Shown here piece by piece: positions 2,038-60,335 of a DNA stretch of 64,000 nucleotides. Numbering within the stretch: the first letter of the stretch is position 1; each line of letters opens with the position of its first letter. The translations under genes and the position numbers were made by a program. Below the pieces are notes generated by a model. The model was not told the DNA's origin. It did no database searches and was given only the letters and a program-made list of their open reading frames with translations. Source of the DNA: Catajapyx aquilonaris (lineage: Eukaryota); NCBI GenBank assembly GCA_000934665.2, contig KZ538499.1:1-64000 (forward strand). The letters run 5' to 3'.

Positions 2038-2320
2038 TTGCCAAGATTTGGCAAAAAAAAGGCAGCGGAGAGAGACGCGCGTCAGGCATCATCGAAGCGA
2101 CATCCGACGGTAAAGTGCAGAAGTAGGCGAGTCGCGATCAAGCAGGTGGTGCCCTGAGCGGCGGAACAAGGAATTCCGTGGAACTGGCGTCGCGTTTTTC
2201 TTTTGCGTTTTACAAAATCCCTGGGCACTGTTTCCAAAAAACAAAAGTGGGTTGCAAATCTAGAAAACACGGGCAAAATTTTGACACCACTCCCAATGCT
2301 GTAGGCTCTACGATTCGGGA
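2038..2320 (+). repeat. Dispersed repeat, copy 1 (copy 2 at 32917-33237)
   Basis: Colinear shared blocks: ttgccaa.atttggca, gacatccgacggt, ttccaaaaaacaaaag, actcccaatgctgtaggc. Confidence 0.75.
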
Positions 2321-3036
2321 GGAGTTCAAATAACAGTCGTAGATTAGCAGCTAAAAGTAGCTGCTTAGTAGTGGCATAGTAAAGAGCAGCCAATTTTAGT
2401 GAAAAACTGAAAATTCTGAGAACAAACAATCCAATTTATCTGGATGTCGTCTTGACATGGGGAGACATGAAAATGCTTAAGGACCACCCCGCCATCTCCC
2501 AAAAAAACCTTTCGGGCAATGTTTGAGCCTGAGATTTGCCAGAAGTAAGTGATCGTTTGACACGAGTCCTAACTGCCAGGGCATCAACGACAATATTTAT
2601 GGTCGTATACAAAAGCTGGCCGTATTTCCTACGGGTAATGGGGCTATAACGAGCGACGACGCCTTCAGACCACATGGGCTTCACAACCCCCCCCCCCCCC
2701 TTGCACCTTCAAAATAAATACAAAATCTTTGGTGGCCCCACTTTTTTTTTGACCCCGCCGTTTTTCTCAAAAAGGGGCATTTACACTTGAAGAATAAGGA
2801 AGAAAAAAAAACATGTCTTAAATAAGGGGAGTCTAGAACCAGGCTGGTTGGCTAGCATGTAATTAAGGAGGTCTTGGGCTATGTTTCTGTCATGAGACTT
2901 TGAAGGGAATAAGTAGACGGCAGAGGGGGAAAAAAGTACGGGGAAAAAAATGTACAGGGTGTTTCGTAATGAGCCCGAAAAAATCACAGAAGAAGACATT
3001 CGGTCTCAAAGAAAAAAAGTTTATTACATGCAATAA

Positions 3037-6005: not shown

Positions 6006-6150
6006 TTTATTAGTATGTATTAATTTATTAGTATGTATTAATTTATTAGTATTTATTAATATATTAGTATTTATTAATTTATTAGTATTTATTAATTTAT
6101 TAGTATTTATTAATTTATTAGTATGTATTAATTTATTAGTATTTATTTAG
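6006..6150. repeat. 18-nt minisatellite
   Basis: Repeated ttattagtat(t/g)tattaat, about 8 copies. Confidence 0.9.
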
Positions 6151-7469
6151 CTACTTATTTGAAGTTATTTGAAGTAACCATGAACTGCGTGCATATAGGC
6201 GCATGTAATAATATTGTGAATATATATACATTATTTATTTATTAGTATTCATTTAGTTATTTATTACCTCTTAGGATTCTTGGGGGTAAATTTAACAAAA
6301 TATGAACCGAATTTGCCTGATATTTCTGAACCCCAAATATTTCATGATAATATTATACTAATGATAGTGACGTGGGGGTCAAAACCACTTCATACTCAAA
6401 TATCAATTGATAAAAAAAAACCCTAACTGGGCGTGACATGCAAATGACATGAAGCTGCAGCCAGGGCGGAGTCAACTGAGCAAAGTTGACAGACACCCAA
6501 AGATTGACAAGGTGAAAGTCAATAACAATAAGGAGAAGAACCCGTATAGGACGCACCCTAAACAGATCCAACCATAAAACAACCATTGTTGACGTCGGCC
6601 ATTTTTGGCTGCGATTTTCCGAACGAAAAACTGAAAGATCTGCGGAATATTATATTTTTGTGGGGGGATAGGAGAACATGGGAGGTCGTTTCCACTACTC
6701 TCACAGATTGCGACTTCCCCAATCTCCACAAAAAAAAAAAAAAAATATTTTGGGTGAAGGTTTACCTTCCATAAATCCTGTGGTTATAGCTAGGGTGAAA
6801 GCACAATAAGAGAAAGCTCAATAAGACCGAGTTAGGAGAGAGCAAAGTTGCTGTGCTGGAGGGGGGGAAGGTTATAACGAATTTACTTCCTTTTTGTTTG
6901 GAAGGGGGGGGTAATGTCAAGCCCCCCTCTAAGTTCTGTATATAACCCACCAAAATTTCGGGTGTGATTAAGTGTCCCATTACTCATGTTTCGATTCCCC
7001 GGGTGTGAATGACCCTTCTTTCCAGTTATACCATATTTTACCCCAGCGACCCTGGCAACAAACAAAACTTTTTTTTATATATATTTTATCGGAGGTCTTT
7101 GTCACCTTTTTAGTATATACCAGGGGGGTGTGTGTGGCCAGGGTTTTTGGTCCCTGATATAACACGTGCGAATTTCCTTTCCGTCTCTGGCCGTTTTAGC
7201 CAGTTGGTAATCGGTCCGTCCCTTTTACGGCCTCTTTTGTCGTTGGATGACCCCTAGAGAAGTAAAGGGAAAAAGGGAGGGACAACTTATGGGGACGGTT
7301 TTTCGGAGGTGACCAAAAAAAAAGTGCCAAAATTTCAAAGTGAAACAGGTCGTTTTTTGGGGGTAATGTCACGGTGTGTAACGGCCACGCGAACGATTAG
7401 GTCTGCGTTACGACTGCACTTTGTCCATTCTCTCCGAACCCAACAGTGGTTATTTTTCTATTCATTTTT

Positions 7470-8400
7470 TCGTTAATTTATTTGTCAATTTATTTATGTG
7501 TTCGCCAATTTATTTTTCATCAATATTTTCAGTTCGTCAATATTCTTTATTATCAATTTTATTGGTTCGTTAATTTGTCAATTTATTTATTCGTCTAATT
7601 TTCTTGTCAATTTATTCATGTGTTCGCCAATTTATTTTTCATCAATATTATCTGTTCGTCAATATTGTTTATTATCAACTCATTTATTTGCGAATTTATT
7701 TATTTGTCTATTTTATTAATTCGTTAATTTATGCTCTTGTCAATTTATTTATTCGTTCGTCGATTTGTTTGGCGAATAAATTGACAAATAAATTGATAAT
7801 AAACAATATTTACGAACAGATAAATAAATTGATAATAAACAATATATACGAACAGATAAATAAATTGATAATAAACAATATTTACGAACAGATAAATAAA
7901 TTGACAAATAAATTGATAATAAACAATATTTACGAACAGATAAATAAATTGACAAATAAATTGATAATAAACAATATTTACGAACAGATAAATAAATTGA
8001 CAAATTGATCATCATCATCATTCATCATTTACTTCACGGCAAAATAATCCCATAGAGGGGTAGCCAGCGGAGTACAGGTTGCCCCTGTCCCCCTCGTATG
8101 ACCTACAAAATGACACTCTGGTGGATGGTCAGGCCACGCAGAGGTTAATGAAAGGGATTAATTGATAATAAACAATATTGACGAACAGATAAATTTACGA
8201 ACAAATTAATAAATTGACAAGAAAATAAATTATTTAATTTGTTAATTGACCTATTCTTCTATACTATTAATTTGTCGATTGATTTGTCGTCAATTTATTC
8301 AATCGTCGTAGTTATTTCATCGCCCATATTAATTAATTTGTCGATTTATTTACCTGTCAGTTCATTTGACACTTTATTTGTTCGTCAGTATTTATTTATT
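7470..8400. repeat. Minisatellite with internal orientation switches
   Basis: Unit aataaattgacaaataaattgataataaacaatatttacgaacagata at ~7775-8230, and its reverse complement at ~7470-7770 and ~8240-8400. Confidence 0.85.
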
Positions 8401-9159
8401 CGTCAGATAAAGTCAGGTGCGCGGCGTCTGATTGGGCTAAATTTTCTTGTCAGCTTCCGTTCTCTTATAATTTACGAGCACAACTTAATTAGGCACAATA
8501 TGGCCGCGGGCTTCCTTCGAAAAAACTTACCCCCCCCCCCCAACTTTTTTGAGGCTATTTAGGACACCCCCCTATACCGTCTGGCTCCTAAAAAATTACA
8601 CGTCAATTTTTTTTTTGTTACCTGAAAATCACGTGGCTTGTGGCCCCGATACATTTCTTTTTTCATTTTATTTTTTTTATTTTGAACGTGATGACGTGTG
8701 GGGGGGAGTTTCGAAAATTACAAGCCAGAGGTTTATAGTTCGCAACAACCGAATTTTCCCGCCCAGAAAAAGAGCGAGGGTTTAAATATAGGCCGGGTCC
8801 TGCTAAATTCCGAGCCTTGACTGCCAGGCCATACCACTATTCTTATCAACACCACCACAGGTAAGTCACGCACAAGTCTTTTAGCCTCACCTTTGGCCCA
8901 CCCCTCCCCCTCACCACCACCACTCCACCACCACCCCCACACCTCATCCAAAAATATACAACCGGTCAGTCTGGACACGTCTTGGTCATCCAGACAAAAA
9001 TGTTGCAACGGAAGTGTGGACGGAAGTTACAGTTAAAACCAACCAAAAATTGGGAATGCATCAGTTAGCATGACTCCAATAAAATTATATATAACTAGAT
9101 AATAATAGTTAATTTGTTAATGAAAATTTGTAGATATTTATCGATTAAATAATATAACC

Positions 9160-9780
9160 AACAGTCTATGACATGAATTAAACTAATAGTGGAAATTACA
9201 CGAATTAAACTAATAGTGGAAATTACATGAATTAAACTAATAGCGGAAATTATGTGACTAATAGGGGAAAGTACACGAATTAAAATTAGTGCAAATTAAA
9301 TATAGAGAAGTAGCTATTAAAATATTTACTCGAGCTATTATTTTAATCTCTACTTCTCTATATTAAATTTGCACTGTGAGCTATTATTTGTTGAACAAAT
9401 AATAGCTCCAGTAAATAATAACAATGGTTCATGAATAAATAATAACAATATCAATTACACAAATATACATAAATTAAAAATAACACTCGAAACAAATGTT
9501 TGATGTATAATTTTGCTTTTATTTTTGTATTCGTCTTGCTAATTTAATTTTCATTTTTAAAAATATGATAAAATAATACAAAATAAAAATAAGACGAATA
9601 CGAATATAAAAACAAAATTAATAGAAACATTTTGTTCCGGGTGTTATATTTAAATTGACTGACATCTATAATAATTGCTATTATTTCTTATTATTTACTT
9701 GAGCTACTATTTCAATCTGTACTTCTCTTTATTTGATTTGCATTATTTTAACTAACGTAATTTCCGCTAGTTCCGTATTT
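9160..9780. repeat. AT-rich island with nested inverted repeats
   Basis: Hairpins at ~9288-9376 (agtgcaaatt..agagaagtag / ctacttctct..aatttgcact) and ~9480-9647. Outer pair tagcggaaatta (~9241) / taatttccgcta (~9758). Confidence 0.7.
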
Positions 9781-10182
9781 GCAACATTGTAATTATAATA
9801 AATCATATAAAATTCGTAACAAAACCATTTAAAAATACACGATAAAATCATATACAAGTACACGATAAAATTATACAAAATACATGATAAAAGCATATAT
9901 TAATGTTAATAATCCAACATTTTAAATAATCACCAATAATAATAATAATTCAAAGTGCAGAAAATGTTTATTCATAAATAATGTGCAGCAACTCGCTTCG
10001 TTGATTCTATACGAATAATTTCCGCCCACTTCCGGCTGCAATCTTACATGATCCTTTACAGTAACCAATAAATAAGGATAAACATTCGCGAACTAATTTA
10101 TTCGCTATTGTTTGGCCTAAAACTGTTGAAACTAAAATCATCCAACCCATCAGTGACACCATAAATATTGTTGTTTACTCAC

Positions 10183-10256
10183 CACCAGTTGGCGTCGTTG
10201 ATCACCACTTGAGTCGAGATCAAGATGATTGTCCACCACATTGTTGTCGTCTCCAT
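10183..10256 (-). CDS. wnt5: Probable first coding exon (signal peptide) of a Wnt ligand, Wnt5-like; rest of gene not found in window
   Basis: METTTMWWTIILISTQVVINDANW(W) followed by a TG|GTGAGT donor in phase 2. The end resembles recalled human WNT5A QVVIEANSWW, and Wnt genes typically have an intron in this W codon. Only 24 codons are visible, so the subfamily is tentative. Confidence 0.55.
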
Positions 10257-12464
10257 AATCTTTTAGAAACTACTTCTCTTATTGTTAAAGTCGTTCTTAA
10301 ATGTCCGTTTTCACTGCAGAATCCGGAATCCGGGCGTCCAGCTCAAGTTCCATGGCTCTGTCTGCGCCTTTTCATTGGCTCGCCGATCATGCTCGCAAAA
10401 ATATTGTACTTCAAAAAAAAAAAAAAAAAAAAAAAGTTTCTTCTTCCTCAAGGGTGTGGGGCAAAGGTTGTTGGGTGGGTGGGGCCAAGAGTCAGTCTCA
10501 TTCATTCATTCATTGAAGAGACTTGTCGGATTTATCTCATGGCTTGAAGTGCAGACGCGTGTTTCGGATTATATTGTTTAGGAGAATGAATGTGGTGTAA
10601 CGTAACAGACAACAAAAGGAAGCCAGTGGAGATGTGGGGGGGTTGTTCACCAGTTGCACTGGTTGTCTCTCAACAGGTAGTTACCACCGGATGTCCCTGA
10701 AAAAATACCAGGGCGAGGAATGTCCAAAACATATTTAATTAACTGGGGACTCATTAGCAATATAACATGACAATTGAAACAATTTTAAGTGGTTGGCAAT
10801 TTTGGTAGTAAGCTGCTTGATTTTTAAGCAGTTAATGTTGTGCAAAGTGGTTATCAGAAGTAGCTGTTAATTTTAAGCCCAATTGCAGCTATGAATTGCA
10901 ACGATTGGGGTCAAACGTGAATAATAAATAAAACGGAAATAAATAATGGCATAATTAGAATATACGAGCAGATAACAAATAAACCAAGCTAAATAACAAT
11001 AAAAAGTAAATACACGAATATTTAAATATAACATGTAAATTAGAAATAAAATGTGCACATAAATATACACACTATCTCAAAATTAATGGAACCAAAAATG
11101 TGCAAATAACTAAAAATAAAATAAGCAAATATAAAAATTAATAGTAGGCCTATATTACTTATTTACGTATTAGTAATGTAATTTTTTTTGCATGCCACAT
11201 TCTTTTTGCGGGCTTTTAAAATAGGCGGTTTCATCCGACCTAATATTAGCTGGTAATATTTCTGATAACCACTAACAGTAACTGATAAAATAAATTATTA
11301 AATAATGACACAACCGGATCTTAGCTCATTATTGCTCAATTTCACCAACTGATTTGGACTGATAAAGTGCTGCTCCGTTTTTCCGACCTTATTAACGGCC
11401 AGTTAAAATTAACGACAGATTAGAGCAGGTTGCACCAACACAAATTAAAACTTGAACATCTGAGGTACAGGCGCGCAGATTTTGTTTTTTTTCGTAAAGA
11501 GTTGACTACAACCATAGTTAACCACGGTTATATCTGTAACGTAGCCGGATAAAAGGTCACAAATTTCTCCAACATTACGAGCTAACCGCAGTTTAACCCA
11601 AAGTAAGGCAAACCTTCGATTATATCCATGCGGTTGTACGAACATGACTTATTACCAAAGTAATGTACATAAAACCGGTTAAACTAAGTTAAAATTTAAC
11701 TAACTTGACAATATTAACCAGGAACTGCCTAACGGTCCGTTAACATTTTGACCCAATTTGACAAATATTGGCCAACTTTCTGTAGCCAAGTGATATGACC
11801 TTTCGCACCAGCAACCACACCTTTTTAACTGTTCAAAAAAACAATGACAATGCCTTACCCTGTGGTGCGACCACCTCTGAGGACCTCTGGGCGAAGAATG
11901 GTCCACACCTGGAAGCACAGCAGACCAGTCGGCGGCTTGGGCCCAACTGTCGATGGCACACACACCACAAGCCTCTTTTAGCCAACCAGAAACCAGGAGG
12001 GGGAAAGAGGGGGACATGGAGGGTAGAGGGGGGGAGACAAGGGTGGGCAGCAGGGTATGAGTGTGCGGGGTTATACCCGGAGCATATCCCATATCATCTT
12101 CATCATTATCATCAACTAACTAAGAGAGGGGAAGCCATCAGCTGTGTTTGCTTATCCCCCCACTGCCTCAGGTACTATGCACAAGTATACATTTCAAACC
12201 CCCCTCCCTATATATCCTACCCTTCAAGGTTTGCTAACCATAACTTTTAATAGCCAGATCGATTGGGGATGCAAAATTTTAATTAATAAGATCGACGGTC
12301 AGGGTGTTGGATTACCACAGGTTTCCGTTTTCTACATGTTAAATGGGACGTGTCCAATGTGCCACCGCACCTGTTCCAACACTAATTAAGGCTCTATTTA
12401 CTGCTTACAGACTATTCAAATTAGTGGCTAGCACTAATAAGCAGCTACTTTTTGCAAGGTGGTC

Positions 12465-17957: not shown

Positions 17958-19868
17958 ATGCGCCTCCTCTTCACCGTCTGCCTAGGGGTCGCCCTTGGGT
18001 TCGCCCTGGCCTCGATCACCCAGGCAGCAGCAGAAGCCAAGGGACCCAAAGTCACACACACGGTTCGACACAACGTCCCTCACTCTTATATCTTATTATA
18101 TTGTTCCATTCTCTCGCATTTTATACTCTATAAGGTGTCAAACGTGGGGCTCCAAATATGAGAAAAAAACAACACACTTTGTTACTTAACAACACATTTT
18201 GCATGCCGCAACACTTGCGGAACACTCCGCATCAACAAAGTGTTCCGTAACACTGTGATGGACTTGTCTGCAAGGTTATGCAATAATTAATGTAATGCCA
18301 TATAACTAATTACGAGCAACTGCTACGATTAATGTAGCAACGCATCAACTAATACAGCAACCTATATAATTTAAAAAAGCAATAACAACTAGTATAACTG
18401 ATATAATAAATGTAGTACTATCAATGTAATAAACGGTTCGTTTGCAAGGTTACGTAATAATTAAGACGATACTCTAATGAAATTCATATAACAAGCAACT
18501 AATATAATTAGTACTATACCATAACTAATACAACATTACAGTGCAACTGGATGTAACTAATATAATTCATGTAACACGATAACTCATATAATGTAATATA
18601 TAACTAATGTAAAAGACAACCAATAGAAAGAATATACAAAATCTATCATGTAATTAATGTAACACAATAACCACAATACAATTAATATAAAACAATAACT
18701 AATGTAATGACATAGCTAATATTCACATACAATAACTAATATGAATATAGTAACAACTAATATATAACAATTCAGCAACTAATAATTATGATGTATTAGG
18801 TAATTTTATTAGTTACATATAGTTATATATTACATTAGTCATATCAGTTACTGCATATTAATTTTATTAGTTATATATAGTTGTTATATATTACATTAGT
18901 CATATCAGTTACTGCATAATAAGTTTAATTAGATAGTTGTGTCAGTAAATAACTAATAAAATTAATTTACAGTAACTGATATGATTAATGTAATAGATAA
19001 CTTATACACCTTTATAACTAATATTATATACAGTAATATAATAAACTGTAATAAATCATGTACATGGCATTGTTGACATTACTAAAAGGCTGTGATCGCA
19101 CTACATGGACAGGAGTTTTGTTGAAAATTGTTGCCGTAATAATATTGTAGCGCAGCTTGTGACACGATTACGGACAATGTTGCGTAACCTTACGTTTAAT
19201 CAGACGCATTACCAGATATGATCAGTGCGGTTCGATGCTGATTGCGGTAGAATCGCATAATTACATACGTTCCTCTTCCCTGATAGGTATGGTTCGATGT
19301 GACGATCGGTGGCGAGGCGGCCGGTCGCATCGAGATCGGACTGTTCGGCAAGACGGTGCCCAAGACGGTGAAGAACTTTTACGAGCTGGCCCAGAAGGAT
19401 GAAGGGGAGGGTTACAAGGGGTCGGTGTTCCATCGGGTGATCAAGGACTTCATGATCCAAGGAGGCGACTTCACCAAAGGGGACGGCACAGGCGGACGGT
19501 CCATCTACGGCGAACGGTTTGCCGACGAGAACTTCAAGCTGAAGCACTTTGGCGCAGGCTGGTTGTCCATGGCCAACGCTGGGAAGGACACCAACGGATC
19601 GCAATTCTTCATCACCGTCAAGACCACTCCTTGGCTGGACGGAAGGCACGTCGTATTCGGGAAAATCATCAAGGGAATGGTGAGTCGACCGCTTCATGCT
19701 GTACGTTTCGCATCTAATCCGATCTATTTCCAGTCCGTCGTCCGCAAGATCGAGAGCACCAAGACCGACAACCGAGACAAGCCCGAAAAAGAAATCGCCA
19801 TTGCCGACTGCGGAGGCGAAGAGGTGTCCGAACCATTCCCAGTCAGCAAAGACGACGCTGTTGAGTAA
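17958..19868 (+). CDS. PPIB: Peptidyl-prolyl cis-trans isomerase B (cyclophilin B), 210 aa
   Basis: Exons 17958-18062, 19287-19679 and 19734-19868, with phase-0 GT-AG introns. Signal peptide [18 protein letters not shown], then [53 protein letters not shown], and C-terminal [11 protein letters not shown]. Confidence 0.96.
18290..19050. repeat. AT-rich degenerate repeat island in PPIB intron 1
   Basis: taactaat-type motifs switch to attagtta near 18795 and back near 18950. Confidence 0.7.
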
Positions 19869-20790: not shown

Positions 20791-24784
<3,994 letters not shown>

Positions 24785-25429
24785 GGCTGTTAGTATAAAT
24801 TGGTCCTGCAAACCATCAAACAAAAAGGTATGCAAATCACAAGCCCTGACCTTGGGGGAGGGGGTTAAAGTAGTTGTGCTCGTGCCTTAATTAGTCCTAC
24901 AAGTTAATAAGGGTGTTGTTACCTTCTGTTTCAACACCACAAAATCTAGCGTTGGTTGGGAGTGTTAACAAGGGGTGCTTCCTGCCTGCACCGATCGCGA
25001 AGCCGAAGAGGGGCCGTGGGGGACAAACTGCCTTGATAATACACAGCCAGAAGAGGGTGTAGGGGAAGGTGGGGAAGGGGAAAAAATATATATATAAAAG
25101 AGAGGAGGTTGCCACGTTTCCTTGATGGACATTTTGGCAACGTTGCGACCACATTTCAAATGCATTGTTTACACGTGCACACACATACACACGGCGCATG
25201 CGTGCTACGTTATGATTGGAGCTTATCTGAACATGCTGCCTTCTGATTGGTTCAATCCATCGCTTTTGTTTCCCCAGGACTGGCACGTGTAAACAGAACA
25301 GCTGCACACTTTTTGAAACAAAGGGCGGGAAGTTGCTCCAGACGTTTGGCTAATTAAAGATGTAATTAAATCCAGCCGAATAATTAGGTTGGATGAAAGT
25401 TTCTTCGTTTCGTTTTTACTGCGCTTTTT

Positions 25430-27256: not shown

Positions 27257-30200
27257 TCACTTGAGTAATTTGGGGTCAGTCCACGTGTAATACACAGGCG
27301 GAGCGGTCAGATCCTCGTCGTCTGACAGCGGAGATTGTACCGTGACTGTCAGTACAACCTGACACTTCCCAGCCTCCGCATTGACCAAGCTGGACATCCT
27401 GTGAATTAAGATGCATCGTTAGCGTCCTTTTAATAACCAATTACGTCGATGATGCTCACAGCATTTTTTTCCGCTTCGGATGCCCCGGAACAATGGGCAC
27501 GTACACCATCTTCGTATCCTGCACGACCATCGTCACTTCGACTCCGTACTTTTCCCGCAGCACCTCGATGAAATTCTGTAGGGTAAATGAAGACACAGGG
27601 TCGCCTTTGACCTCCCAGCGGTCCCAGCAGGTTACGGCGGTCGTAGCGGACAGGCAGGTGGTGCTCGGAAGAGACGGCCCGTAGGTAGATAAGCTCGATG
27701 GGAATGTCATATCGAAAGTCCAGTTGTGAAACGGCGAAGTGTTGTTCGGCGAGTAAGTCGGATCGGATGGAATCATTGAGTTTGGCGTAATGAACGGCTT
27801 GCGATCGACTGATAAGCAAGTTGGGATCTCCACACATGCCTGTTAACAGATGACAGCAACATAATTATGTCCTATTTAAAACCGCAGTATACGAACCAGC
27901 GCTCCGACGATGCTCGCAGTGCAGCCTACAGTCGGCACGATTCTGCCTGCGATGCGCTTGATTTCCGACATATCGATCCTATCCAGACCGTACATGTCCG
28001 CCCGAAGATTGGCCGCCGACTCTATAAAGCTGAAGTGGTCCACATGGTCGAATCCCGAATGGTTCAGTCGCTTCGGTGGAATAGGGTAGAGGCATGGAAT
28101 TTTCTTGGTGGTAGATGACAACGGAAAGAGTGAAGCGAACTGCTCCAACATAGACGAGATGGAAGAATCGGAAGGTTCCGCTTCAGCTGCAGGCTTCTTG
28201 GCGTTCTCGTCGATCTCAATCGTCTGATTGTAAAATCACATTAAAATTAGATAACAACGTACAATCATGCAGGTTACCTTCCCGTCAATGGGGACAAACT
28301 CGGGGAGCGTCACGGACTGCAGCACTTTTGTCACGTACTCCCGGCTCCTGTTCAGACACGAGTTGGGTATGCCGGAGAGTTTGGCCCACAGAGCCGCATA
28401 GCACATGATGAAGTCCCTTCAAAATTAAATGTGTGTCAATATTTGCAATCGCTAAAATTATAAGATATGATTACATGTGCAGATCATCTTTCGGGTTGAA
28501 TTTTACGGGCGTTGGAAGATGCTTCGGCGGTGTCCAGAATAATGAGCCGTCCGCGAGTGTCCAATCGGCCGGAAAGCAATGCAGGAGTTGTCTAGCGCGG
28601 GTGTCGAAATACTGATGGAATGCTCTGCGGGCCCGGACGATGCATCTGCAATTATCCACTGGTTAATGATCTGAATCAAAAGCGTACATTGTGCGACTCA
28701 CTCGTCCCAGTCCCAAATATGTTTGGTGTGTGGCAGCATCTTGACGGCTTCCCGACTGCCTTCGCCTCTAAGCACTGCCTTCCCAGCACTTTCGCCGCCA
28801 CTCTGCTCCTCCAGTGCTTTCATCAGCTCGAAGTGAAAGTGATTCCAGAACCAGTTGAACTTTTTCGGCTTGACGTACAGCAGGTTCTCCTTTTTAGCCG
28901 AGGCCCATTCGATCAGATGGCCTGGCTCAGACGGGAATGACTTAATGGTGCAGTACGGATAATCACCTTCGCCTAGCGGTGGGTCCAACGAATCCTGAAA
29001 AGTACATGTTGCGTATTACGGAAGTCTGCTGCCCAATCGGATCGTACCTGGTATGCTTCGGTCCAATGCGGATGTATTATTTCGATGCATCCGGCCAGCC
29101 CTCTTGTTCCGCAATGCAAAACGGGCTTCATGGACTCCATGCATGAACGGGAAATGGCACGACGAGCAGTGAGATCGTCAACAGTCGACAGGACCACGTC
29201 GTATTGGGCCCAAAACTCTTTGGATTCCAACGTCGGGTGAATATCAGGCCGGAATTGTATGCAGTGACATGCAGTCTCCAGCCTCGGGTTCAGATCGCGC
29301 AGACGGTCTGGAATACGATGCAATTAAGCAAGTGCAGTAAGTACAAAGGGTGCAACTCACCTGCGATGGCCTCGCACTTTAACCTCCCGACATCACGTTG
29401 ATTCAACAGCGATTGCCCGGCGACGTTGCATCTCCGGACAACCTCGGAGTCAATCATGATCACCTTTTGCAGCCTCAGGCCATCAGTTACAGCCAGGATC
29501 CTCAGCACCTCCAGAGCGATGCTGCTACATCCGACAACTAGTAGGCTCCACGGCTTCATCGGCAGACTTGGCACCCCCACATTCGGGAGGACCAACCATT
29601 GGGTCAAAGGCTGGCCCGTCTTGCTGGCGGCCTTCAGAAATTCGGATACTGTAAACCCGGCGATCAGTGTGGCCATATGCGGATCAGTCCAACGCGGGGC
29701 GTCCGGTTCACTTGGCGGTGAACGCATCTTGACGAAGTTAGTACTGCTCTTAACGTTTGGAATTCCGGAGCAGTACTGGAAGCTCGGTTTCTTCAATTGC
29801 ACCTGGAAGCTTTCCTGTATGAAGCGAAATATTAGCACTGAAATCCAACGAACGGGCGATCCGACTTACGTGACGGACAATATCCGGTGCGGCTGCAACT
29901 TCGATGATTCCGCCATCCTGATATTCTCCGAAGTTGGCCACACCGTCCACCCACAGCTCTTTGCTCGATATGACCTTAACGACCCGTTCGCTCCCATTCA
30001 GCTCGGACATCCCGCCCTTAAGTCGCCAGAACCTGATTGAATCGCCGTCTCTCAATCCGTGATCCTCCGTGCATATTACGGTTCCATCGGTCGAAACAAC
30101 GCTGAGGTGAACCACAGGTTGAGGCAGCTCCCGTCCGAGCCGATCAGCAATTTTAAACTCATCACCCAGGTCCACGAATAGTGAGCAGCTGAAGCCTTGC

Positions 30201-30927
30201 ATGTCAGCCTTGAAGTAGGCAGCTTGAGGCGACCTGGCCCGACACGCTTTGTTCAGGTCATTGGACAGCTGCGGATAAATCATGATGTACTGTACGTTCT
30301 AAGCGGCGCTTGATGCGAATCGTACCTTATCGTCCAGCCCACATGCGAACACGTACTCAACCTTCCCGACCAGTTCGTCCCATCCGTCTACATTCGGCAC
30401 GACTTCAACTTGCGGGATTCCCTCGATACGTTTCAACGCAGCTTCCGCCCTGTTGTGTCCTTCCTCGTCGGGGTGGATAGACGCGCAGGACTTAATATCC
30501 ATCTTGCTTATAGGCTGCGGGTCATACACGTAAATCCATCTGACGCTGTACTGCAGGAGGTTACGGAGGACCTCAGACCCAATGGGGCCAAGTCCGACGA
30601 CCAGTGATTTGGAGCCATATATCCGGCTGATCCTTTCCTCTCCGAACTCATACTCCAAATGGCTGAAAAGCAATTATAATTGGCATTACTAATGACACAG
30701 TAATTAATTGGCAACCCCTGCAAATTAGTGAGCGCAGTAATTAAAATGCACAGGTTAGCCAAAGCAACTATCTGGCTATAATAATATAATTATTAATAAT
30801 TAATTAGAAATTGTTAGAACAAGAGGATGGAAGCCGGCCCTCAGCTTGATCCTGCTCATGACCCGGCCGGTGACCTGTTGGGTCAATACCTGTTGTCTGG
30901 TTGGTAGGCCGAGGAGTGGTCATCCAT
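27257..30927 (-). CDS. UBA6: Divergent UBA6-type ubiquitin/Ubl-activating enzyme E1, 979 aa
   Basis: Exons 30927-30890, 30662-30326, 30268-29870, 29814-29361, 29307-29048, 28994-28702, 28645-28475, 28416-28278, 28223-27897, 27839-27460, 27398-27257. All introns GT-AG and phase-compatible; 2940 nt total. Domain order IAD, FCCH (HGLRDGD), AAD, catalytic PYCTIKSFP (Cys 28950-28952), UFD. QLLHCFP..DGSLFW, EKYGVEVTMVVQDTKMVYVPIVPGH and DEDLTAPPVYY match recalled UBA6 rather than UBA1. Exon 1 is the least certain; orthologue versus paralogue is unresolved. Confidence 0.88.
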
Positions 30928-31224: not shown

Positions 31225-31310
31225 AAAGCTCCCCAGGCGGGGATTCGAACCTGGGGCCTTTCACTCAGCAAGCCGAGACGTTAGCATCACGGCCATCTAC
31301 TACACCTCCC
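31225..31310 (-). mobile_element. tRNA-related SINE head
   Basis: Minus strand ..gatggccgtgatgctaacgtctcggcttgctgagtgaaaggccccaGGTTCGAATCCccgcc; no clean cloverleaf. Confidence 0.5.
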
Positions 31311-32005: not shown

Positions 32006-32916
32006 ACTATACAGAGTCCCTATTCTTGTGTGTGATTGGGCACAGTCCAGCGGAATGCAAATAAAGGCAATGTTCCAGGGGGCTAATTCGGCTGGAATGT
32101 CATCCAATCATTTCTATGGCCTCTCTGGAGCTAAAACGGGTCCTAGAACAAATCGGTGTGTCGCAAATAACTGGAGGAGGACCAGGCGGGGCTCCCCCCA
32201 AACTTGGAACCAATTTCCTCCGGAATTGTCAAATATCGGGAGCCCAGGTGGGGGGGCTTTTTGTAAATGGGACGAGGGGGGTAGGGTATAGGTGGGGGTT
32301 ATATGGAGGCGGGTAAGGGGGTGGGTTGGGTTTGGCTGCAGCTGAGGATGCGCGTAGTTTCGACCCACCCACCCACCCACCAAATCTCTGGATGCTGCTG
32401 GAGCTGGAGTCACTTGGAGTCCAGCATCCAGACTGGGGACAACCAGGAACTTCCAGAGGCAACAGGTGGAGACCACATATATGTAGTTATTAGTAGGAGG
32501 AGAAAGGTGCGAAGACATGTGACAGGTCCTATGGGTCCAGTGTCTGCAACAGGTGAGTTTAAACATTGAGGGATCAATCTTGCAACAGTGCAGGTCACGT
32601 GACATTGATTCGGTTAGGTTAGGTTAGGTTACCCCAGGAATCGCCCTGGAAAATCCCATGGATATCCACTGAATCTCCGGATATCCATAGAATGTACGTA
32701 ATGTATGCAAATGTCCTAATTAGGTTAGTAGGCTATAATAATTCATACCCCGTTAGTATATAGGCTATAGGTGAGCTTAGATTAGATTAACCTAGCTAGA
32801 TTATAAGTTGTGTTTGGTTAGATTATTTCAGGCGAAAAGGGACATTTTGATTAAAAGTGAAATGTTTTAAAAGCAAATTGTTTCCCTCCCATTTTAAACT
32901 TTAATTAGGCACCAAC

Positions 32917-33237
32917 TTGCCAAAATTTGGCAGTAAATTAGGCAAAATTGCGAAAGTGGAGAGGGAGAGACGCGGACCAGGCAGGACATCCGACGGTGAA
33001 ATGCCGAAGTAAGCGAGTCGTCACCGTGGAGGTGGCGCCCCGTGGCCGGAACGGCGGTTGTGGGAACTCCGTGGAAAGGTCGCGGTGGGGTTTTTTTTTT
33101 GAGGCGGTCGGCGTTTTTGGGGGGTTTTATAAATATCCTGGACACTATTTCCAAAAAACAAAAGCTTATTGCAATTATAGAAAACGCGGGCTAAATGTTT
33201 ACATAACTCCCAATGCTGTAGGCCGTACGGTGCGGGA
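32917..33237 (+). repeat. Dispersed repeat, copy 2 (copy 1 at 2038-2320)
   Basis: Same blocks in the same order as copy 1. Confidence 0.75.
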
Positions 33238-33477
33238 TGAATCGCAATCACAACAGGGTATTGATAATATAGATAGTCTGGAATTTTATGCTTTGCACGA
33301 AAGATGGGTTTGGGGGGGGGGGGGGGTGATCCAATTTTAATAATTATTAAAATGTAGTCTTAAAACTGTTTTTTTTGTTTGTTTGTAAAGATGGCGACTT
33401 TTTTGAAGAAGTTTGCGTCGAGGGCGGTTGACGACGCCAGTGGTCGCCTGTTGGCCATCCCGTGATTTTCGTAATCC

Positions 33478-33573
33478 ATGGAGCCATGGATGATCGGACT
33501 GGTGGTGATCTTCATCTTCGCCTTCCTCTGCGTCGTTTCATGCATCATGTACCACTTCTTCCTCAACCCTTAA
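33478..33573 (+). CDS. Candidate 31-aa single-pass membrane micropeptide
   Basis: MEPWMIGLVVIFIFAFLCVVSCIMYHFFLNP*. 26 of 31 codons end in G/C, like the verified genes. Lies in an exon-like block (T-rich acceptor ending 33390, donor CTG|GTAAGT at 33577/33578). Confidence 0.6.
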   Translation: MEPWMIGLVVIFIFAFLCVVSCIMYHFFLNP

Positions 33574-33919
33574 GCTGGTAAGTTGTAGTTCGAACATATA
33601 ATCCAGAGATGGCGCATCTGCCGCGTAGCTCCTGCTTCCATCTAGTGGGTGATATTTGAAAGCTCTTAATCAGCATGCACTCCCTTAGTTGAATGTGGCA
33701 ACACCCTCCCATAAATGTGTCACCGCGTGGTGTCGTTTCCAAGTTCCCTATCGGTGTGACATGTGGCGGCCTAGAAAATAACAGCCTTCATATCTACCTA
33801 TATAGCTTTAGTCAGACTGCGACACTTTCAAGCGTCACCACTGGCTATCTGCGGTTGGTATTGTTCGGCTTTACATGTCGTGCGCGGTTTTGGATACCTG
33901 ACAAACTCTCACACGGATC

Positions 33920-33940
33920 ATGACAAAAGGAGAAATCTAT
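33920..33940 (+). CDS. Candidate short first coding exon (phase 0)
   Basis: ATG ACA AAA GGA GAA ATC TAT|GTAAGT = MTKGEIY; could splice to 60189. Confidence 0.25.
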
Positions 33941-37490: not shown

Positions 37491-38756
37491 ATGCAGAAAT
37501 TTTCCAGCTTCCCACATGTGCAGGACCATTTTACACAGTTTATTACGCCGACGTAAATAACCCGATATCTCATCTGAGATACCGCGAATTCCGACCAGAT
37601 TGTCATTCATTCACAGAGTGTCACAAAAAAGGGGTCGATGTGCCACCCTCTCCCTAAAAAAATATGTGTCGCAGGGGTGTACCCAGCATCAGCTTCCAGA
37701 CATGATTCAGAGGCGAGAATGATGACTCACATGTGTCGCGTGAATTATGATAACAAAAAAAAAACGCAGGAGGAGGAAGGTCGTGCCTTCTAAGTAATTC
37801 CAGTGGCTCAAGTGACTCTGAGTTGGACGGGTGCATTGTCTTGCAGAGAATGGTAAGAGAAACGATTATAATATATTACATATAATATATCAGGCAGCTT
37901 GAGAGTGTGCTTGTCTGGGCGCCACATATGTGAGGACTATAGCGCAACTTTCCAGGACTATAGCCAAAAGAATTTAGTCGGCTTTGTTTATCCTGAGCAA
38001 ACAAGTCTGTTAAAGGAAAACAGTAGCCTCCGTTAGTCTTAGCACACCGATAGACTCCTTTGCACTATTAATGCCAAGCTCAGGCAGACCTGTATTTACC
38101 TTTCTCTATTCGCCAATATTTGGCCAAGGGATTTCGCAAATACACACTGTAACCAACGTAACCGCTATTTTAATGGGGGGAAAAAAATCAGTTACTTGAG
38201 GACGTTAGCAAAATCATTGTTGAACACTTTGCCATTTTTTTTTTTTTGGGGGGGGGGGGAGAAGTATACATTTTTGGGGCTCCATCTTTCTTTAACATTC
38301 CTCGGGCGTGTCCCAATTATTTTTGTCGCCAAAGTTCGAAAACATGAAGGCGACGGAATTAGCTTTACAGAAGTTGATTCAGTCGTAGTTGATTCCCCTG
38401 GAGGAACCTTCCTTTTTCGCGACATTTTTTTTTTTTCTGGTGGTACATGAATAATTCTGGACGTCAAGAGTCATAGCTGTATAGTGCTATGGAACTTTAT
38501 TGGGGATAAAATTAATAATGGATTTTAGACCGATATACGGACCCATGGAGGAATAAACAACTTCATATAAATCTCTGACATAATATTCCAGACAATAACT
38601 CAAAGATAATATACATTAAATACTAACTAGTAAGACCATCTAAACGATTTTGTCATATGTTGAAACATCTACGTCAAGTTGGCAAAGACACAATAACGTT
38701 CGCTGGCAGCATTGTTCGCCTAATTATACACAACCATAAATACATTGTGTGAAATT

Positions 38757-41195: not shown

Positions 41196-44100
41196 GTGAG
41201 TAACATGGAACCAGCTGGGTGTATTTTTAGATAGAAAAAAATATATATACTGGGTTCTCCCAAAAAAATGTGAGGACGACAGTCTCAGTCTGCGTCGAAG
41301 TTCACAGCAGTATGGTAAGTACCAGGTACTTATTGCATCAAGTTGACAACATTTTGGTACGAATTTTGCATCAGTATGACCATGACTGTAAAGTACACAC
41401 AAAATGTGATATCCAATATTATTGCGCGGGACTGGTCTTTGCGGACACAGTAAATATGTTTCGGGTTAATTTTGTAAGGGCAATGTCCCCTACAGTGTTA
41501 TTGACGCTAGCAAATGGCGGTTTCCATGACCAGAAGGAACATACACACAGAAAATACCGCTAATGTAACAGCGTAGTTAAATATTCCGGACTATATAGTA
41601 GCGTGTAGATATTAGATTCGCCACTAGCAACCGCCACTATAGTGAGCAACAATACTTGGGATTGAAACATGTCCGCATACCTCGATACCTCTACCGTCTG
41701 CTTGGAATATATTTAGTAGTGTTCATTTATTATTTATTGGTTGTACGTATATTCATTTATCTTATTATTTATTAGTTGTAGGTATATTCATTTATCTTTT
41801 TTTAAGCAGTAGCTATAGTTGATTCATTTTAGTAGTAGATATTATATTCATTTTTATTTATTAGTAGTAGATATTATATTCATTTATTATTCATTAGTTA
41901 TAGGTGTATTATTCATTTTTATTTATTAGCAATGTTATTCATCTATTAATATGTAATTATTTATTGGATTAATTTATTAGCATTACTTTTTTCCATATAA
42001 TGTATTATTAATATATTGAAATTATTTCTTTAAAACAAAGAAATAATTGGATAAATAATGGCGGAATTGTTTATTTTAAATAAGAAATAATTCCGAGTAG
42101 AAATAAATAATTGCTAATGTGTATGAATTATCAACTATCTGTTAATTTTAAGAATGACTTAATTATTCGTTAATTTTAAGAATGATTTAATTAGTAGCTA
42201 ATTTTAAGAATGATTTAATTAGTAGCTAATTTTAAGAATTATTTATTACTAGCATATCTTAACAATTATTACTTATTCGCATATTTTTAACAATATATTA
42301 TTACTTATTCGCATATTTTCACAATTATTGAGCATTTTTATTTTTAAAATTATTCGGAATTTTTATTTTTAGAATCATTCAGTATTTTTCTTTTTATTAT
42401 TATTTATTTTTGGAGCCGGACTTAAATTTTAGTGCAATTTATGTAGTTAGGACCGCGTGCTTTTAAAAACCACGTCATATGTTATTATGGCCAAGCATCA
42501 CGACTATTTTTGTCCGCATTATTTAAGCGCATTAATTACTCTCCCAGCACAAGCTCCAGGAAGTGCACTTATAGGCCTCTTCTATAGTTCAAGAAGCTAT
42601 ATTACTCTCCAGCCAACAGATTTTATAGCCTAAGCCTTCGACGCTTTAGAATATTGAATTTCCAATAGGCCCTAAACACAAGAAGGGTGTTAATGTTAAA
42701 GGTTACATCCAAGCAAAGATGGAGCCCATTTCCTTATAAGCCAACCCCAGCTATCTGCTGACAAAGTTTTCCTAATTGGGACGAAGCTAGAGGGGCCAAC
42801 AAAGTCTTCTTGTTTCCCAAAAGCAAAGAGGGCCCTTCCCATTATTATCAATTTTCCCATGTTTGCGCCTTCCCGGATTATTATCAGACGAGGTAACCAC
42901 ATCGTTGCAAAGCCAAACTTTACAGTGTTTCGCCAATATGCGGTTTTTTGCTTAGTTAACATATACACGTGGGGGTCAAGTCAGTGTCAATTATATGCAG
43001 CAAATTTGGCATAAACCTAGGGTAATTTGACATAAAGGGACTTTGCAATAATGCGGACCCACATGTACTGTACGAATGAACTGTTTTGAATAGAAAAAGT
43101 TCAAACGAACACGCACATCAGTGGTGCAGGCAAAGAGGATTTCGCGAAATAAGCCGTATTGTTTTGTACTGAAAAACACAGTTGCCATTGTAACCAAAAC
43201 CTGGACAAACAAACAAACATTGCCTTTTAATGTACATGTATAGTGTGAAAAGAGATAGATGGAGCACGGTACGTCTCATTTGCCTGATATAATTAGAGCT
43301 GGACCCTTATTGTGGGTTGTATATTCGACAACAATGATAATATTGTTGTCGAATACACAACCATTGTCCTGCAGCGCACAAAACGGACAATTATTTTGTC
43401 CGTCTTGTGCGCCGCAGGACAACGAACGCTATTGTGGCTTTGCTAATTTGACGTAGATGTTTTAATACACACTTTTATTCACGAGAGACTCAATATTAAC
43501 TTTTAAAGTGACAAAATATCTATTTAAAACATGAAAGCCATTTTTTGATCCTTTAGTTACGACCTGTCTGGCGAGAGTCCTCTGGCGGCGGAAACAGTCC
43601 TGGCGCAATCAAGCGATGAAAAATCCCCCCCAGGGGACAATCTAATACTGATGCTGCACAGTCTTGGAATCCGACCAAAATCGGAAAATTTGCATGCTTA
43701 TTGCCAGCGCAACTCCTCGATAAACAAAATTGGCAACAGCAATATGTGTACCGTACAACGATTGGACATGGTCCAAAAAGCTATGTCCATAGGATTTATA
43801 AAGCCCCTCTCTCTCTCTCTATAGCTGCTCTTGCCCGATCCAAACCGGCTCACGACCCTTTTTGTGGTGTGGAGGGGGCAAGCTGCCCTAAACGGTGCTT
43901 TTGCCAAAAGTTTGCGGTACATTTTGCAAATAAGCCGGTCTCAGCAGTATATGGTCCTTCCTAACATTGCTGACCTTCCAGCCAGTCACATTATCACCCA
44001 CACAGTCTGATGAGAGGGGTCAGGTTCGTTGCATCCACTAGTTTCATCATCTCAGCTCAGCTGGAGGTCGGTGGATGTAGTACCACCACCCCTCGCACAA

Positions 44101-48580: not shown

Positions 48581-49407
48581 ATGTAATTTTTGAAGAAGAA
48601 AAAAAATGGACTCGTGTGAGTGGTCCAAATATGCGTCGTGATTTAGCGAAGGCGGCGCCCCAGGTTTGTCTATTCCAGACCTGGCAATTCATCAGGTTGC
48701 TAGGGGAGGTTGATGGGGCAAGTTTCAAGGCGGGTGGGTATAGGGGGGAAGAGCATGTCGAAAAACAAGGGGGGGGCCATGACCGACTAGTTTCTTCTTT
48801 TTAAAAGGCTCTGGAACCACATTCCAGAGCATCCCTTTTGGATAAGTCCATTTTGTGACAGTGTGAAGCAAAAAAAAAGTATTGTGAGCAAAAATAGCGT
48901 GAAGGTCATTTAAAAAAATGGGGCGGTTTTGACATGAAAATTATTCATATCGCAGAGCAAGGTCGCCAAGGAGAAAGTGATATACGCAATTTTGCATGTG
49001 AGCATTCTTCATTTGTTGCGAAAAAAAACTAGTTGCAAGGCCAAGTTCAAGCTTGACCCTTGACCACCTGCATCGCGTTTTATTGTTATGTTCTTGGAGG
49101 TATTACGCCAAAAATGTGCGAATTTTTTTGGCGAACTTTGCTGGCAGAAAATGAACGTCCATCCCGTGAAAGCTCCCTCTGCTTACACTCCTCTTTGTGC
49201 AATTGTCCAGGCCAAATTGAGGGTAACTGATGCGCAAAAATTGGAGTAAATGAGTCCATTATTTAGGCAACAATACGAAGTTAATTAGACCCGAACGCAA
49301 CGTTGGTTTAATTACGATGCCAAAATTGCAGTGATTAATCGATATAAATATTTTATAAGTATCGCGGGTCGAGAATAACTGCTTAAAATAACTGTTACAT
49401 CGAAGCA

Positions 49408-49492
49408 GGTTGGTGTGGTGGTTAATAAGGAGCCCGAATGCTAATCGGAAGGTCCTGGGTTCGAATCCCGGGGCCGGCAACCCTGACCGTGG
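49408..49492 (+). mobile_element. tRNA-derived SINE head (family of 25430-25604)
   Basis: taatcggaaggtcctgGGTTCGAATCCcggggccggcaaccctgaccgtgg closely matches the minus-strand copy at ~25527-25580. Confidence 0.7.
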
Positions 49493-51066: not shown

Positions 51067-51698
51067 GTAAATATATTATTGGGCCGAAGATAACAAAGAA
51101 AAGATGAGGGGCGACGAAACCGGATTCTGAGGGTGTCAGTGCCCTCGTTTTTTGGGGGCGCATCACTTGCATAACAATATTATTAGGGATGCAACAATAC
51201 GGTGTGTGAAGTGCAACAATAGTTGAGACACCAACCGGAATTATTTACAACACCATGACATATCAAGTTTTATATTTAAAAAAAAAACTGGACAATGAAC
51301 TGTGCCTTCTTCCGTGTGTCATTGTTGAGCTTCAATTTGGGGGCGAAAGTACAGGGGGAGCAATAAAAAGAAGCTTTCCCACACATTATTTTTGTATACG
51401 CGTCTCTTGAATGCTGGGAAAATGCCGGACATTGCTATGTGGGTATAATTATGTCAGGTTGTATTTTTATACCGGTCGAGCCTTTCACATCTAGTTTATT
51501 ACACTGGGTGTACTGCTCTAGCTGTTTACAGAAAATGAAATGTCTGTGCCTCTGTTTGTCCGCGGTGAGTCATATACCTTGGCAACGTCGCAAACGTCGG
51601 CCATTTTGTTCCTTACCCAAGCGTAGCGTTGGAAATAAGTGCGTCGCTTATTAAATATCGCAGTATTTACATACATATTTAGCGTATGTATTTATATA

Positions 51699-56835: not shown

Positions 56836-57061
56836 GGGACCGAATTCAGAGAGGTTGCTTAACGTAAACGCGCCAGATTAAATCCTTTAGCCATCCTCGA
56901 TTAGCAAATTTAATCAACCTGCTAATACAAAGACGGCGATTAGCGCTAAACGCCCCCTAATCGCACTTGCTAGCACTTTTAAATTTGCTAATCGAGGATG
57001 ACTATATATAAAGGATTTAATCGGGCGCGTTTAAGTTAAGTAACCTCTCTGAATTCGGCCC
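56836..57061. mobile_element. MITE with ~75-bp TIRs, copy 1
   Basis: gggaccgaattcagagaggttgcttaacgtaaacgcgcc / ggcgcgtttaagttaagtaacctctctgaattcggccc, flanked by cta/tag. Confidence 0.85.
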
Positions 57062-57439: not shown

Positions 57440-57656
57440 GAATTCAGAGAGGTTGCTTAACGTAAACGCGCCCGATTAAATCCTTTGGTCATCCTCGATT
57501 AGCAAATTTAAAAGTGCTAGCAAGTGCGATTAGGGGGCGTTTAGCGCTATAATCGCCGTCTTTGTATTAGCAGGTTGGTTAAATTTGCTAATCGAGGATG
57601 ACTAAAGGATTTAATCGGGCGCGTTTACGTTAAGCAACCTCTCTGAATTCGGCCCC
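57440..57656. mobile_element. MITE with ~75-bp TIRs, copy 2 (opposite orientation)
   Basis: Same TIRs; the internal segment is the reverse complement of that in copy 1; left terminus clipped. Confidence 0.85.
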
Positions 57657-58146: not shown

Positions 58147-58254
58147 ATGCTGACCTGGTGGAGGTCGCTGCAGGTCACCGATAGGATCCGGAGGCTGTGC
58201 AGCCAGGCCATAGCCATGATGTGCATACCCATGCCTGTTTTCATCGAGATTATC
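58147..58254 (+). CDS. Candidate alternative first coding exon of the PH-domain gene
   Basis: caaATG start; MLTWWRSLQVTDRIRRLCSQAIAMMCIPMPVFIEII then ATC|GTAAGT, phase 0; mostly G/C-ending codons. Confidence 0.45.
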
Positions 58255-59159
58255 GTAAGTCTTGTTGTGGCCATCGCCACACAGTATGCAGTATTTTTAG
58301 CACGTCTGATACAAGGTGGCAATGACCTCGTTGCATTGTCTCATGATGTGCCAGATGTTTGCACCTGGTAACTGATGTACGGGATTGCTACAACGACATT
58401 GTAGTACGCTATATATAATCGGCTCTGTCTGTTTCCATTTGTTTGTAGCAGATAGTACCAGTATCCCTTGCATGACCATGAGAGTGGCGGACCAGCCTCC
58501 GTTGAAGTGTGTCGCATCCTCTTTGACCGCTACAGAGCGAACATACGGGGAAAGTGATAACTACATGCTCGTTGGTGATGAGTCAACGCATGTATAGGGA
58601 CATGCATAGTGACTTCTGAATATTACGGAACAGAATTAGGACCGAAGAGGATTGGAAATTAATTAAGGCGTCCAAAGGCGTTGAATTTTGTGTCCCGGCT
58701 GCAGGATCAATCCAAAGAGAGTCTCGTCAACAACCAAAATGGCGGGTGTTCTCAAGAGGTGGAGGGGGGTATAATATAAGGGTTGGGGAAAGGCAGAGGG
58801 ATTACCCCCTCCCCCCTCCCCCCCTCCCTCCCTCTCCAAACATCGATTTGCAGCCAAAGTCAACTTGCCAATATCTATTCAAAGAGTTTCAGCTACCAGA
58901 AAATTGTTTGATGACCTTCTTCAGATGGGGGGGTGGAGGACCTTTTCCAATCTCTTCCGATGTTCCCTGAGGTGATGCAACTTTGGGTTTAAAACTGGTT
59001 CTTTTTTTTATTCCACGACAGTTTTACAGCGCACGATTGTTACCTCTGGTGGTGTCAGCACTGTGTAACTCACGTTTAGAAAAGTAGGGCGCATTTTGTT
59101 CCGTCTGAGGTTCCGCCTTGGAGACGGTATATCGATGGTAAATGAATTCCATGCATTAT

Positions 59160-60188: not shown

Positions 60189-60335
60189 GATATCCCGCCT
60201 GCGGGTTCGTTCAGCAACCCGGCCACGGCTGGATATCTCCAAAAGCTCAGTGGAAGAGGCTTCCTCTATCCAGGGTCATGGAAGAGGAGATATTGCGTCT
60301 TGGACGGCAACAGAATTTACTACTATGAGAAAGAG
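60189..60335 (+). CDS. Internal exon encoding the N-terminal half of a PH domain (PLEKHO/CKIP-1-like); gene continues beyond window
   Basis: Strong acceptor (tttttctctcttttag|) and donor (GAG|GTAAGT), phase 0/0. DIPPAGSFSNPATAGYLQKLSGRGFLYPGSWKRRYCVLDGNRIYYYEKE fits PH strands beta1-beta3 (GxLxK..WKRRYxVL..YY) and resembles recalled PLEKHO1 GWVRKFCGKG..WKNRYVVLKGDQLYISEKE. Confidence 0.85.

Follow-up and report, generated by a model that had tools for sequence, protein, structure and literature searches.

A predicted single-helix membrane micropeptide of 31 residues in Catajapyx aquilonaris with two relatives of the same start and near-same length

The first 64,000 nucleotides of contig KZ538499.1 of Catajapyx aquilonaris (the window) carry on the forward strand, at 33478..33573 with the stop included, a 31-codon open reading frame (ORF) that is marked out by its codon bias, by two relatives and by one predicted helix. 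With fewer than 100 codons, a coding signature, and start, length and sequence conserved in the two relatives, its product is classed on sequence grounds as a conserved single-pass membrane micropeptide. On the same footing, the predicted peptide is assigned to a new, unnamed membrane-micropeptide family within a well-known kind of molecule. This conserved family of 31-33-residue membrane peptides is unannotated and escapes standard gene callers. Since peptides that are this small and of this shape commonly act as regulators of pumps, transporters or membrane complexes, the family offers a cheap handle on a regulatory step.

Results

Translation of 33478-33573 (+) yielded a peptide of 31 residues followed by TAA, in agreement with the earlier note, and the ccATGg start reported there is present in the sequence. 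Inspection of the sequence placed a TAA in frame two codons 5' of the ATG at 33478, and this ATG is therefore the first possible start. A recount returned the same figure of 26/31 G/C-ending codons that had first drawn attention to the ORF, or 22/27 for synonymous codons alone. The accompanying description of the surroundings as AT-rich applies to the wider window, but not to the immediate flanks, which have 45-46% GC compared with 49% in the ORF. Thus, the coding signal lies in codon position and not in bulk GC. All 14 of the Phe, Ile, Cys, Tyr, His and Asn codons of the ORF end in C.

Codon use was scored with a synonymous-codon model trained on 1,022 codons from two genes of the window, those for cyclophilin B and a UBA6-like E1. 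Among the 435 ATG-initiated ORFs of 20-60 residues on both strands of the window, the micropeptide ORF had the highest score per codon (0.74 bits) and the second highest total score, the highest total belonging to an ORF antisense to the cyclophilin gene. Within the subset of short hydrophobic ORFs in the window (n = 21), a positive codon score was observed for the micropeptide ORF only, with the runner-up at -2.9 bits. When the peptide was held fixed and codons were drawn from the local background, the observed score was reached in 0/200,000 synonymous resamplings and the count of 26 G/C-ending codons in 3/200,000. The ORF, together with its 401-nt neighbourhood, is single-copy in the genome. 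Collectively, these results confirm the 31-codon ORF and make it very probable that it is coding.

A full HMMER scan of 1.84 billion representative proteins with the micropeptide (P0001) as single query produced two matches at E <= 0.001. These proteins, P0002 (33 residues, 66% identity over residues 1-29, E 2.2e-4) and P0003 (32 residues, 63% identity over residues 1-30, E 2.7e-4), are unnamed Logan proteins in singleton clusters, and both align from Met1 of P0001. Protein-level conservation of the ORF, which the earlier note had left to be checked, is thus found in two relatives of the same start and near-same length at 63-66% identity. In the three-member alignment, 15/33 columns are invariant, and P0002 and P0003 are identical to each other at 17/32 positions, including positions at which P0001 differs. 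A search of the genome with P0003 returned the micropeptide locus as its sole match, with an E-value of 3.3e-7. Conservation runs along the entire helix and is not concentrated near the stop, and the residues adjoining the stop differ among all three members. The two same-start relatives place the micropeptide in a small unnamed family of 31-33-residue peptides, and this family may be larger, as the search rested on a single sequence.

The exact 31-residue peptide was absent from a 15-billion-protein collection, and searches of a protein atlas with P0001 or P0003 yielded nothing usable. Locus searches with the family alignment confirmed 0/586 pattern matches in metagenome contigs and 0/522 in viral contigs; in prokaryote genomes 1/47 was confirmed, and was rejected as a match of 9 residues. 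No family in Pfam or NCBIfam matched the micropeptide family above its cut-off, and in NCBIfam there was no match for P0001 and a best E-value of 0.11 for a relative. Literature searches on arthropod and dicistronic membrane micropeptides found no earlier description of the peptide.

It is very improbable that the 33478 frame goes untranslated, whether as a chance hydrophobic ORF, as an exon of a longer protein, or as a bystander to a real frame that begins at ATG 33486. The E-values of the relatives are modest (2e-4), composition alone lets hydrophobic strings score, and the 14-nt context of ATG 33486 is identical to the predicted start of the UBA6-like gene. However, the codon statistics of the 33478 frame argue for translation, as do the starting Met shared with both relatives and stops that fall within two residues of one another, whereas the overlapping frame from ATG 33486 scores -10.6 bits and has an anti-coding use of codons, with 9/31 ending in G or C. 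An exon of a longer protein is opposed by the in-frame stop two codons upstream and by the lack of an acceptor ahead of the ATG. Two further arrangements were considered and ruled out: the final exon of a longer type I protein, by the same upstream stop and the relatives' same Met start, and a programmed frameshift, by the differing ends of the family members.

The claim that the peptide is one hydrophobic helix is in keeping with structure prediction, which gave a helix over residues 3-29 at a mean pLDDT of 94.7. Lys and Arg are absent from all three family members, and there is no signal peptide. In the family alignment, position 2 is acidic, position 4 is Trp, position 22 is an invariant Cys, and His-Phe-Phe occupies 26-28; residues invariant in the family include W4, M5, F12, F16, L17, V20, C22, I23, H26, F27 and F28. 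The invariant residues did not cluster significantly on one face of the helix (p ~0.11 with three sequences).

The likeness to the MAP17/SMIM24 helix proposed in the earlier note stood in part. MAP17/SMIM24 (PF15807; MAP17 is also called PDZK1IP1, and SMIM24 also MARDI) was the top match of the micropeptide among 24,736 Pfam families (E 0.074), and MAP17 was the only molecule that the micropeptide matched among 177,635 solved sequences (E 0.036; chains 7vsi_B, 7wmv_B and 7yni_B). The nine ungapped identities to human MAP17 (P, W, M, G, L, F, L, H, F) were reproduced in the HMMER alignment over 28 columns. However, the Pfam score of 13.5 bits lies well below the curated family cut-off of 29.6 bits. 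MAP17 was likewise the only solved molecule matched by P0002 (E 0.18), and PF15807 was listed at E <= 10 for 2/3 family members; P0003 had no MAP17 match at E <= 10 and preferred CD46 (E 3.3). The three-member family profile again found MAP17 only among the solved sequences, at an E-value of 0.34 that is worse than the 0.036 of the single sequence. When natural hydrophobic 31-mers from the window served as controls (62 of the 66 found, the 4 from L003 being left out), 1/62 reached E <= 0.074 with any Pfam family and 0/62 matched MAP17 at E <= 1, a comparison that flatters the MAP17 match because most of the controls are non-coding and they fall short of a real helix in hydrophobicity.

Five positions that do not vary in the family (W4, M5, L17, H26 and F27) carry the same residue in MAP17, with no gap, so that all three members share with MAP17/SMIM24 a W-M outer end and an H-F inner end at the same spacing. 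The remaining 4/9 identities (P3, G7, L8 and F14) vary within the family, three of them in the outer half of the helix. Thus, the P-W-M-x-G-L start and H-F end are present in P0001, and the relatives keep W, M, H and F but not P, G and L, the Gly being replaced by V and I. The proteins also differ in length (114 residues for MAP17, 31 for the micropeptide). MAP17 is described as having an N-terminal hydrophobic segment, a cytosolic tail and a C-terminal PDZ-binding motif (PMC5896160, in excerpt), all of which the micropeptide family lacks, and there is no room for such extensions in an ORF bounded by stops on both sides, with relatives of 32-33 residues. A search of the genome with the MAP17 profile did not return the micropeptide locus, and two other places that it did return (E 0.1-0.17) were rejected as low-complexity or interrupted frames. 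A literature search for MAP17/SMIM24 in invertebrates, judged by titles and the openings of abstracts, found no invertebrate MAP17.

An SLC5 gene of the SGLT clade, its last helix complete, is present in the genome (contig C1045, ~4038-11711; L031, L009 and L029). Its product matches human SGLT1 with an E-value of 2e-103; identity to proteins of springtails and crustaceans is 52-56%, and to those of molluscs slightly less. The last helix is much like that of a mammalian SGLT2, and its conservation extends across 83 invertebrate relatives. Sequence thus indicates that a 14-helix SGLT with TM13 is present in the same organism, a precondition for MAP17-like action and nothing beyond that. Additional SSF-family matches were seen on contigs C862, C1764, C1, C949 and C1962, several of them in tandem.

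The consensus GTAAGT splice donor that had been noted 4 nt after the micropeptide stop is present at 33578..33583 (+). It is the 5'-most of 15 donor-like sites on the + strand between 33000 and 60200, 6 of which are exact GTAAGT. On the other side of the ORF, a probable promoter or 5' leader at 33388..33477 (+) contains a AAGATGGCG motif that also occurs ahead of the UBA6-like gene; we infer the promoter role, and take the motif to be YY1-like. This leader includes a 24-codon upstream ORF (33391-33465) with a weak codon score. The locus is bounded upstream by a dispersed repeat at 32906..33240, copies of which, at 68%, occur near window 2099-2323 and in L004.

Downstream of the micropeptide and on the same strand lies a PH-domain gene, at the 5' end of which the micropeptide exon is situated. 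The first half of the PH domain is encoded at 60189..60335 (+) (Pfam PH, E 2.1e-6); the gene continues at C889:65736-65876 and on contig C1748, where two further exons were found (C1748:38087-40881, -). These exons are joined in P0124, a relative's protein that has a CPI-like motif in its tail and starts at a Leu codon inside the PH exon, the 5' exon not being displayed. P0124 was rejected as the host's own protein because its tail is only 59-72% identical, which marks it as an orthologue from a related species. The tail of the PH gene also gave a CARMIL_C match (E 0.014). The gene shares with CKIP-1/PLEKHO-type proteins an N-terminal PH domain and a tail motif near the CPI consensus, a combination that suggests an invertebrate CKIP-1/PLEKHO-like capping-protein regulator, and it may be an adaptor of this family. 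Compared with the CPI consensus, given as LxHxTxxRPK(x)6P (PMC5491179, in excerpt), its motif replaces the His by Cys and the Lys by Arg, and its spacer is 7 long. Searches with the PH exon confirmed 0/592 pattern matches and 0/6 candidate proteins.

The PH exon requires a phase-0 upstream exon. By raw count, an in-frame phase-0 ATG is present at 7/15 of the donor-like sites between 33000 and 60200, and coding-like codons were found only at 58147-58254. This candidate alternative N-terminal coding exon (58147..58254, +) is hydrophobic, has 36 codons in phase 0 and a GTAAGT donor, and scores 0.46 bits per codon, with 30/36 codons ending in G or C. If the donor after 58254 goes unused, a 74-residue ORF with a hydrophobic stretch results (58147-58371, +), possibly a second small membrane protein. 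Three other candidates are inferred from their signals. One, at 33920..33940 (+), would be the end of an alternative first coding exon, with 7 codons and a phase-0 GTAAGT donor; it had no codon support, and its junction with the PH exon would generate a YDxP-type motif. Another, at 41285..41314 (+), would be a short first exon ending in ATG before GTAAGT, an arrangement with a similar ATG-donor at 37850-37852. The last, at 51532..51564 (+), is a putative phase-0 exon of 33 nt with an ATG located 3 nt into it; it had no codon support, and its Cys-rich N-terminus (51535-51564) is a possible lipid anchor.

Candidate acceptors for the micropeptide donor are 33646, the exon at 51532, the PH exon itself (rank 9/701) and a private 3' UTR exon. 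The 68-nt intron to acceptor 33646 was downgraded, as this acceptor ranks 212/701 and has no branch-like motif. In-frame fusion of the micropeptide to the PH domain was ruled out by the stop in all three members, by a PH frame that is shifted by one base and by the absence of an ATG in the exon. The position and the donor fit a shared transcript, judged slightly more likely than not, in which the micropeptide exon would be the leader of the PH-gene mRNA; the two proteins would then be co-expressed.

Discussion

The reading that we prefer, and for which we regard the chances as evenly divided, is that the ORF specifies a translated single-helix peptide whose action would be in trans, as an accessory subunit to a larger membrane protein that need not be the SGLT, perhaps in co-expression with the PH/CPI adaptor. 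The peptide would be made from a first exon. Chains so short would be inserted post-translationally, most simply with the N-terminus outside. Being short, without a signal peptide and almost without loops, the micropeptide would likewise be inserted after translation, with its acidic N-terminus outside and its His-Phe-Phe end at the cytosolic interface, and the invariant residues of the helix would form a packing surface against the larger membrane protein. As the chain is too short to hold a catalytic or soluble binding domain, these residues suggest that the helix packs on a partner. The best database likenesses of the micropeptide, MAP17 and SPAR, are single-helix regulators of larger membrane proteins. 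The earlier note had envisaged a minimal invertebrate accessory subunit for a transporter or pump; the coding single-helix micropeptide and the SGLT-clade gene in the genome fit that suggestion, of which homology to MAP17 and binding to a transporter are putative elements. The host's SGLT-type transporter is the best named candidate partner, although it is unlikely to be the actual one. Microproteins are reported to be enriched in membrane helices (PMC11475943, in excerpt).

Two other explanations were weighed. It is distinctly unlikely that the micropeptide is a true minimal MAP17/SMIM24 homologue, whose bare helix would bind TM13 of the host SGLT-type transporter and activate it. Such a homologue would account for the top Pfam match and the sole match among solved structures, for five identities that are invariant in the family, for the failure of any of the 62 control 31-mers to match MAP17 at E <= 1, and for a host SGLT whose last helix is close to that of mammalian SGLT2. 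A tryptophan at the outer interface and aromatic or His residues at the inner interface are, however, common in single-pass helices. The weak score (13.5 against 29.6 bits), its fall when the relatives are added, the missing P0003 match and the missing N-terminal segment, tail and PDZ motif led us not to file the micropeptide as a MAP17 member. In the human complex, the single MAP17 helix is described as touching TM13 through its outer half (PMC10803289 and PMC12322204, both in excerpt), which is in keeping with action by a bare helix; yet P3, G7, L8 and F14 vary in the family, and three of these are in the presumed contact half. SGLT1 is reported to be functional without MAP17 (PMC12605011, in excerpt), and the presence of an SGLT need not imply a MAP17-like partner.

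Unlikely as well is the reading in which the peptide is mainly a conserved-peptide upstream ORF, the exon being the leader of the PH/CPI mRNA and translation of the hydrophobic peptide serving to tune the adaptor's own translation or to carry it to the ER membrane. The donor does stand first in the series of candidate first exons for the PH gene, the exon scan is otherwise empty of + strand coding exons from 33577 to 58093, and the first AATAAA-type signal after the micropeptide is at 34528. Splicing of the donor to the exon at 51532 would place an ATG 7 nt behind the micropeptide stop, and the longest contig with P0003, at 4,494 nt, has room for a second ORF. The P0002 contig measures 1,035 nt. 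Set against this, the nearest acceptor (33646) is weak, and the PH gene could start elsewhere (at 33920, 41312 or 58147) and therefore does not need the micropeptide exon. Strong use of optimal codons argues that efficient synthesis of the product is favoured over stalling, and the residues adjoining the stop, which differ in all three members, also weigh against a regulatory upstream ORF. For these two explanations together, a combination may be drawn in which a stripped-down 31-residue invertebrate MAP17, reduced to the helix that grips TM13, would come from the leader of the mRNA for the PH/CPI actin-capping adaptor; we judge it quite improbable.

Were the stripped-down MAP17 real, the accessory control of sodium-sugar transporters would predate vertebrates, the helix would be the ancestral core, with the PDZ tail a later addition, and one transcript from the PH/CPI leader would link activation of the transporter with remodelling of cortical actin. 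Should the MAP17 link hold, the micropeptide would be a natural minimal SGLT activator and would date the mechanism of SGLT activation before vertebrates. That mechanism is called not fully clarified in a review (PMC7462921, in excerpt), and isoform-specific dependence on MAP17 is listed as open (PMC12605011).

Other known systems resemble the preferred accessory-subunit reading in outline. Sarcolamban/sarcolipin/phospholamban-type pump regulators and OST4 are single-helix subunits of ~30 residues, and the micropeptide is like them in size, in its single helix, in the absence of a signal peptide and in presumed helix packing; among the Pfam matches listed at E <= 10 for the micropeptide family, none was to any of their families. 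SPAR (PF22004) matched the micropeptide over residues 1-28 with an E-value of 0.13 and 12.5 bits, short of its cut-off of 27. SPAR is likewise a small single-pass peptide with the helix right at its N-terminus, but its family spans 75 positions with a tail and was matched by 1/3 of the micropeptide family members. A genome search with the SPAR family found one place (E 5.9) and did not return the micropeptide locus. In layout, the locus is like the dicistronic small-ORF genes wurmchen1/2 and sloth1/2 of Drosophila (PMC11475943), with a small membrane protein encoded beside a second ORF and, at this locus, possibly on one mRNA with it; here, the candidate partner ORF would be the PH-domain adaptor 18-27 kb downstream. 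In the same source, 32/298 conserved fly small ORFs are counted as polycistronic.

Other features of the window

Upstream of the micropeptide lie, beyond the dispersed repeat, the UBA6-like gene (-), a gene that we take to be REEP/DP1/Yop1-like, and the cyclophilin B gene. The UBA6-type E1 gene (~27257-30927, -) has introns of 52-57 nt, and the exons of the presumed REEP/DP1-like gene (~20909-24805, -) were found by the exon scan. The cyclophilin B gene (17958-19868, +) has three exons and encodes 210 residues with a signal peptide; the donor of its first intron, GTTCGA, is unusual. By eye, sequences that are tRNA-like or resemble tRNA-derived SINEs, with a GGTTCGAATCC box, were seen at 31230-31300 (-) and 49405-49480 (+), as were two copies of a MITE-like element of ~200 nt in opposite orientation at 56860-57060 and 57440-57655.
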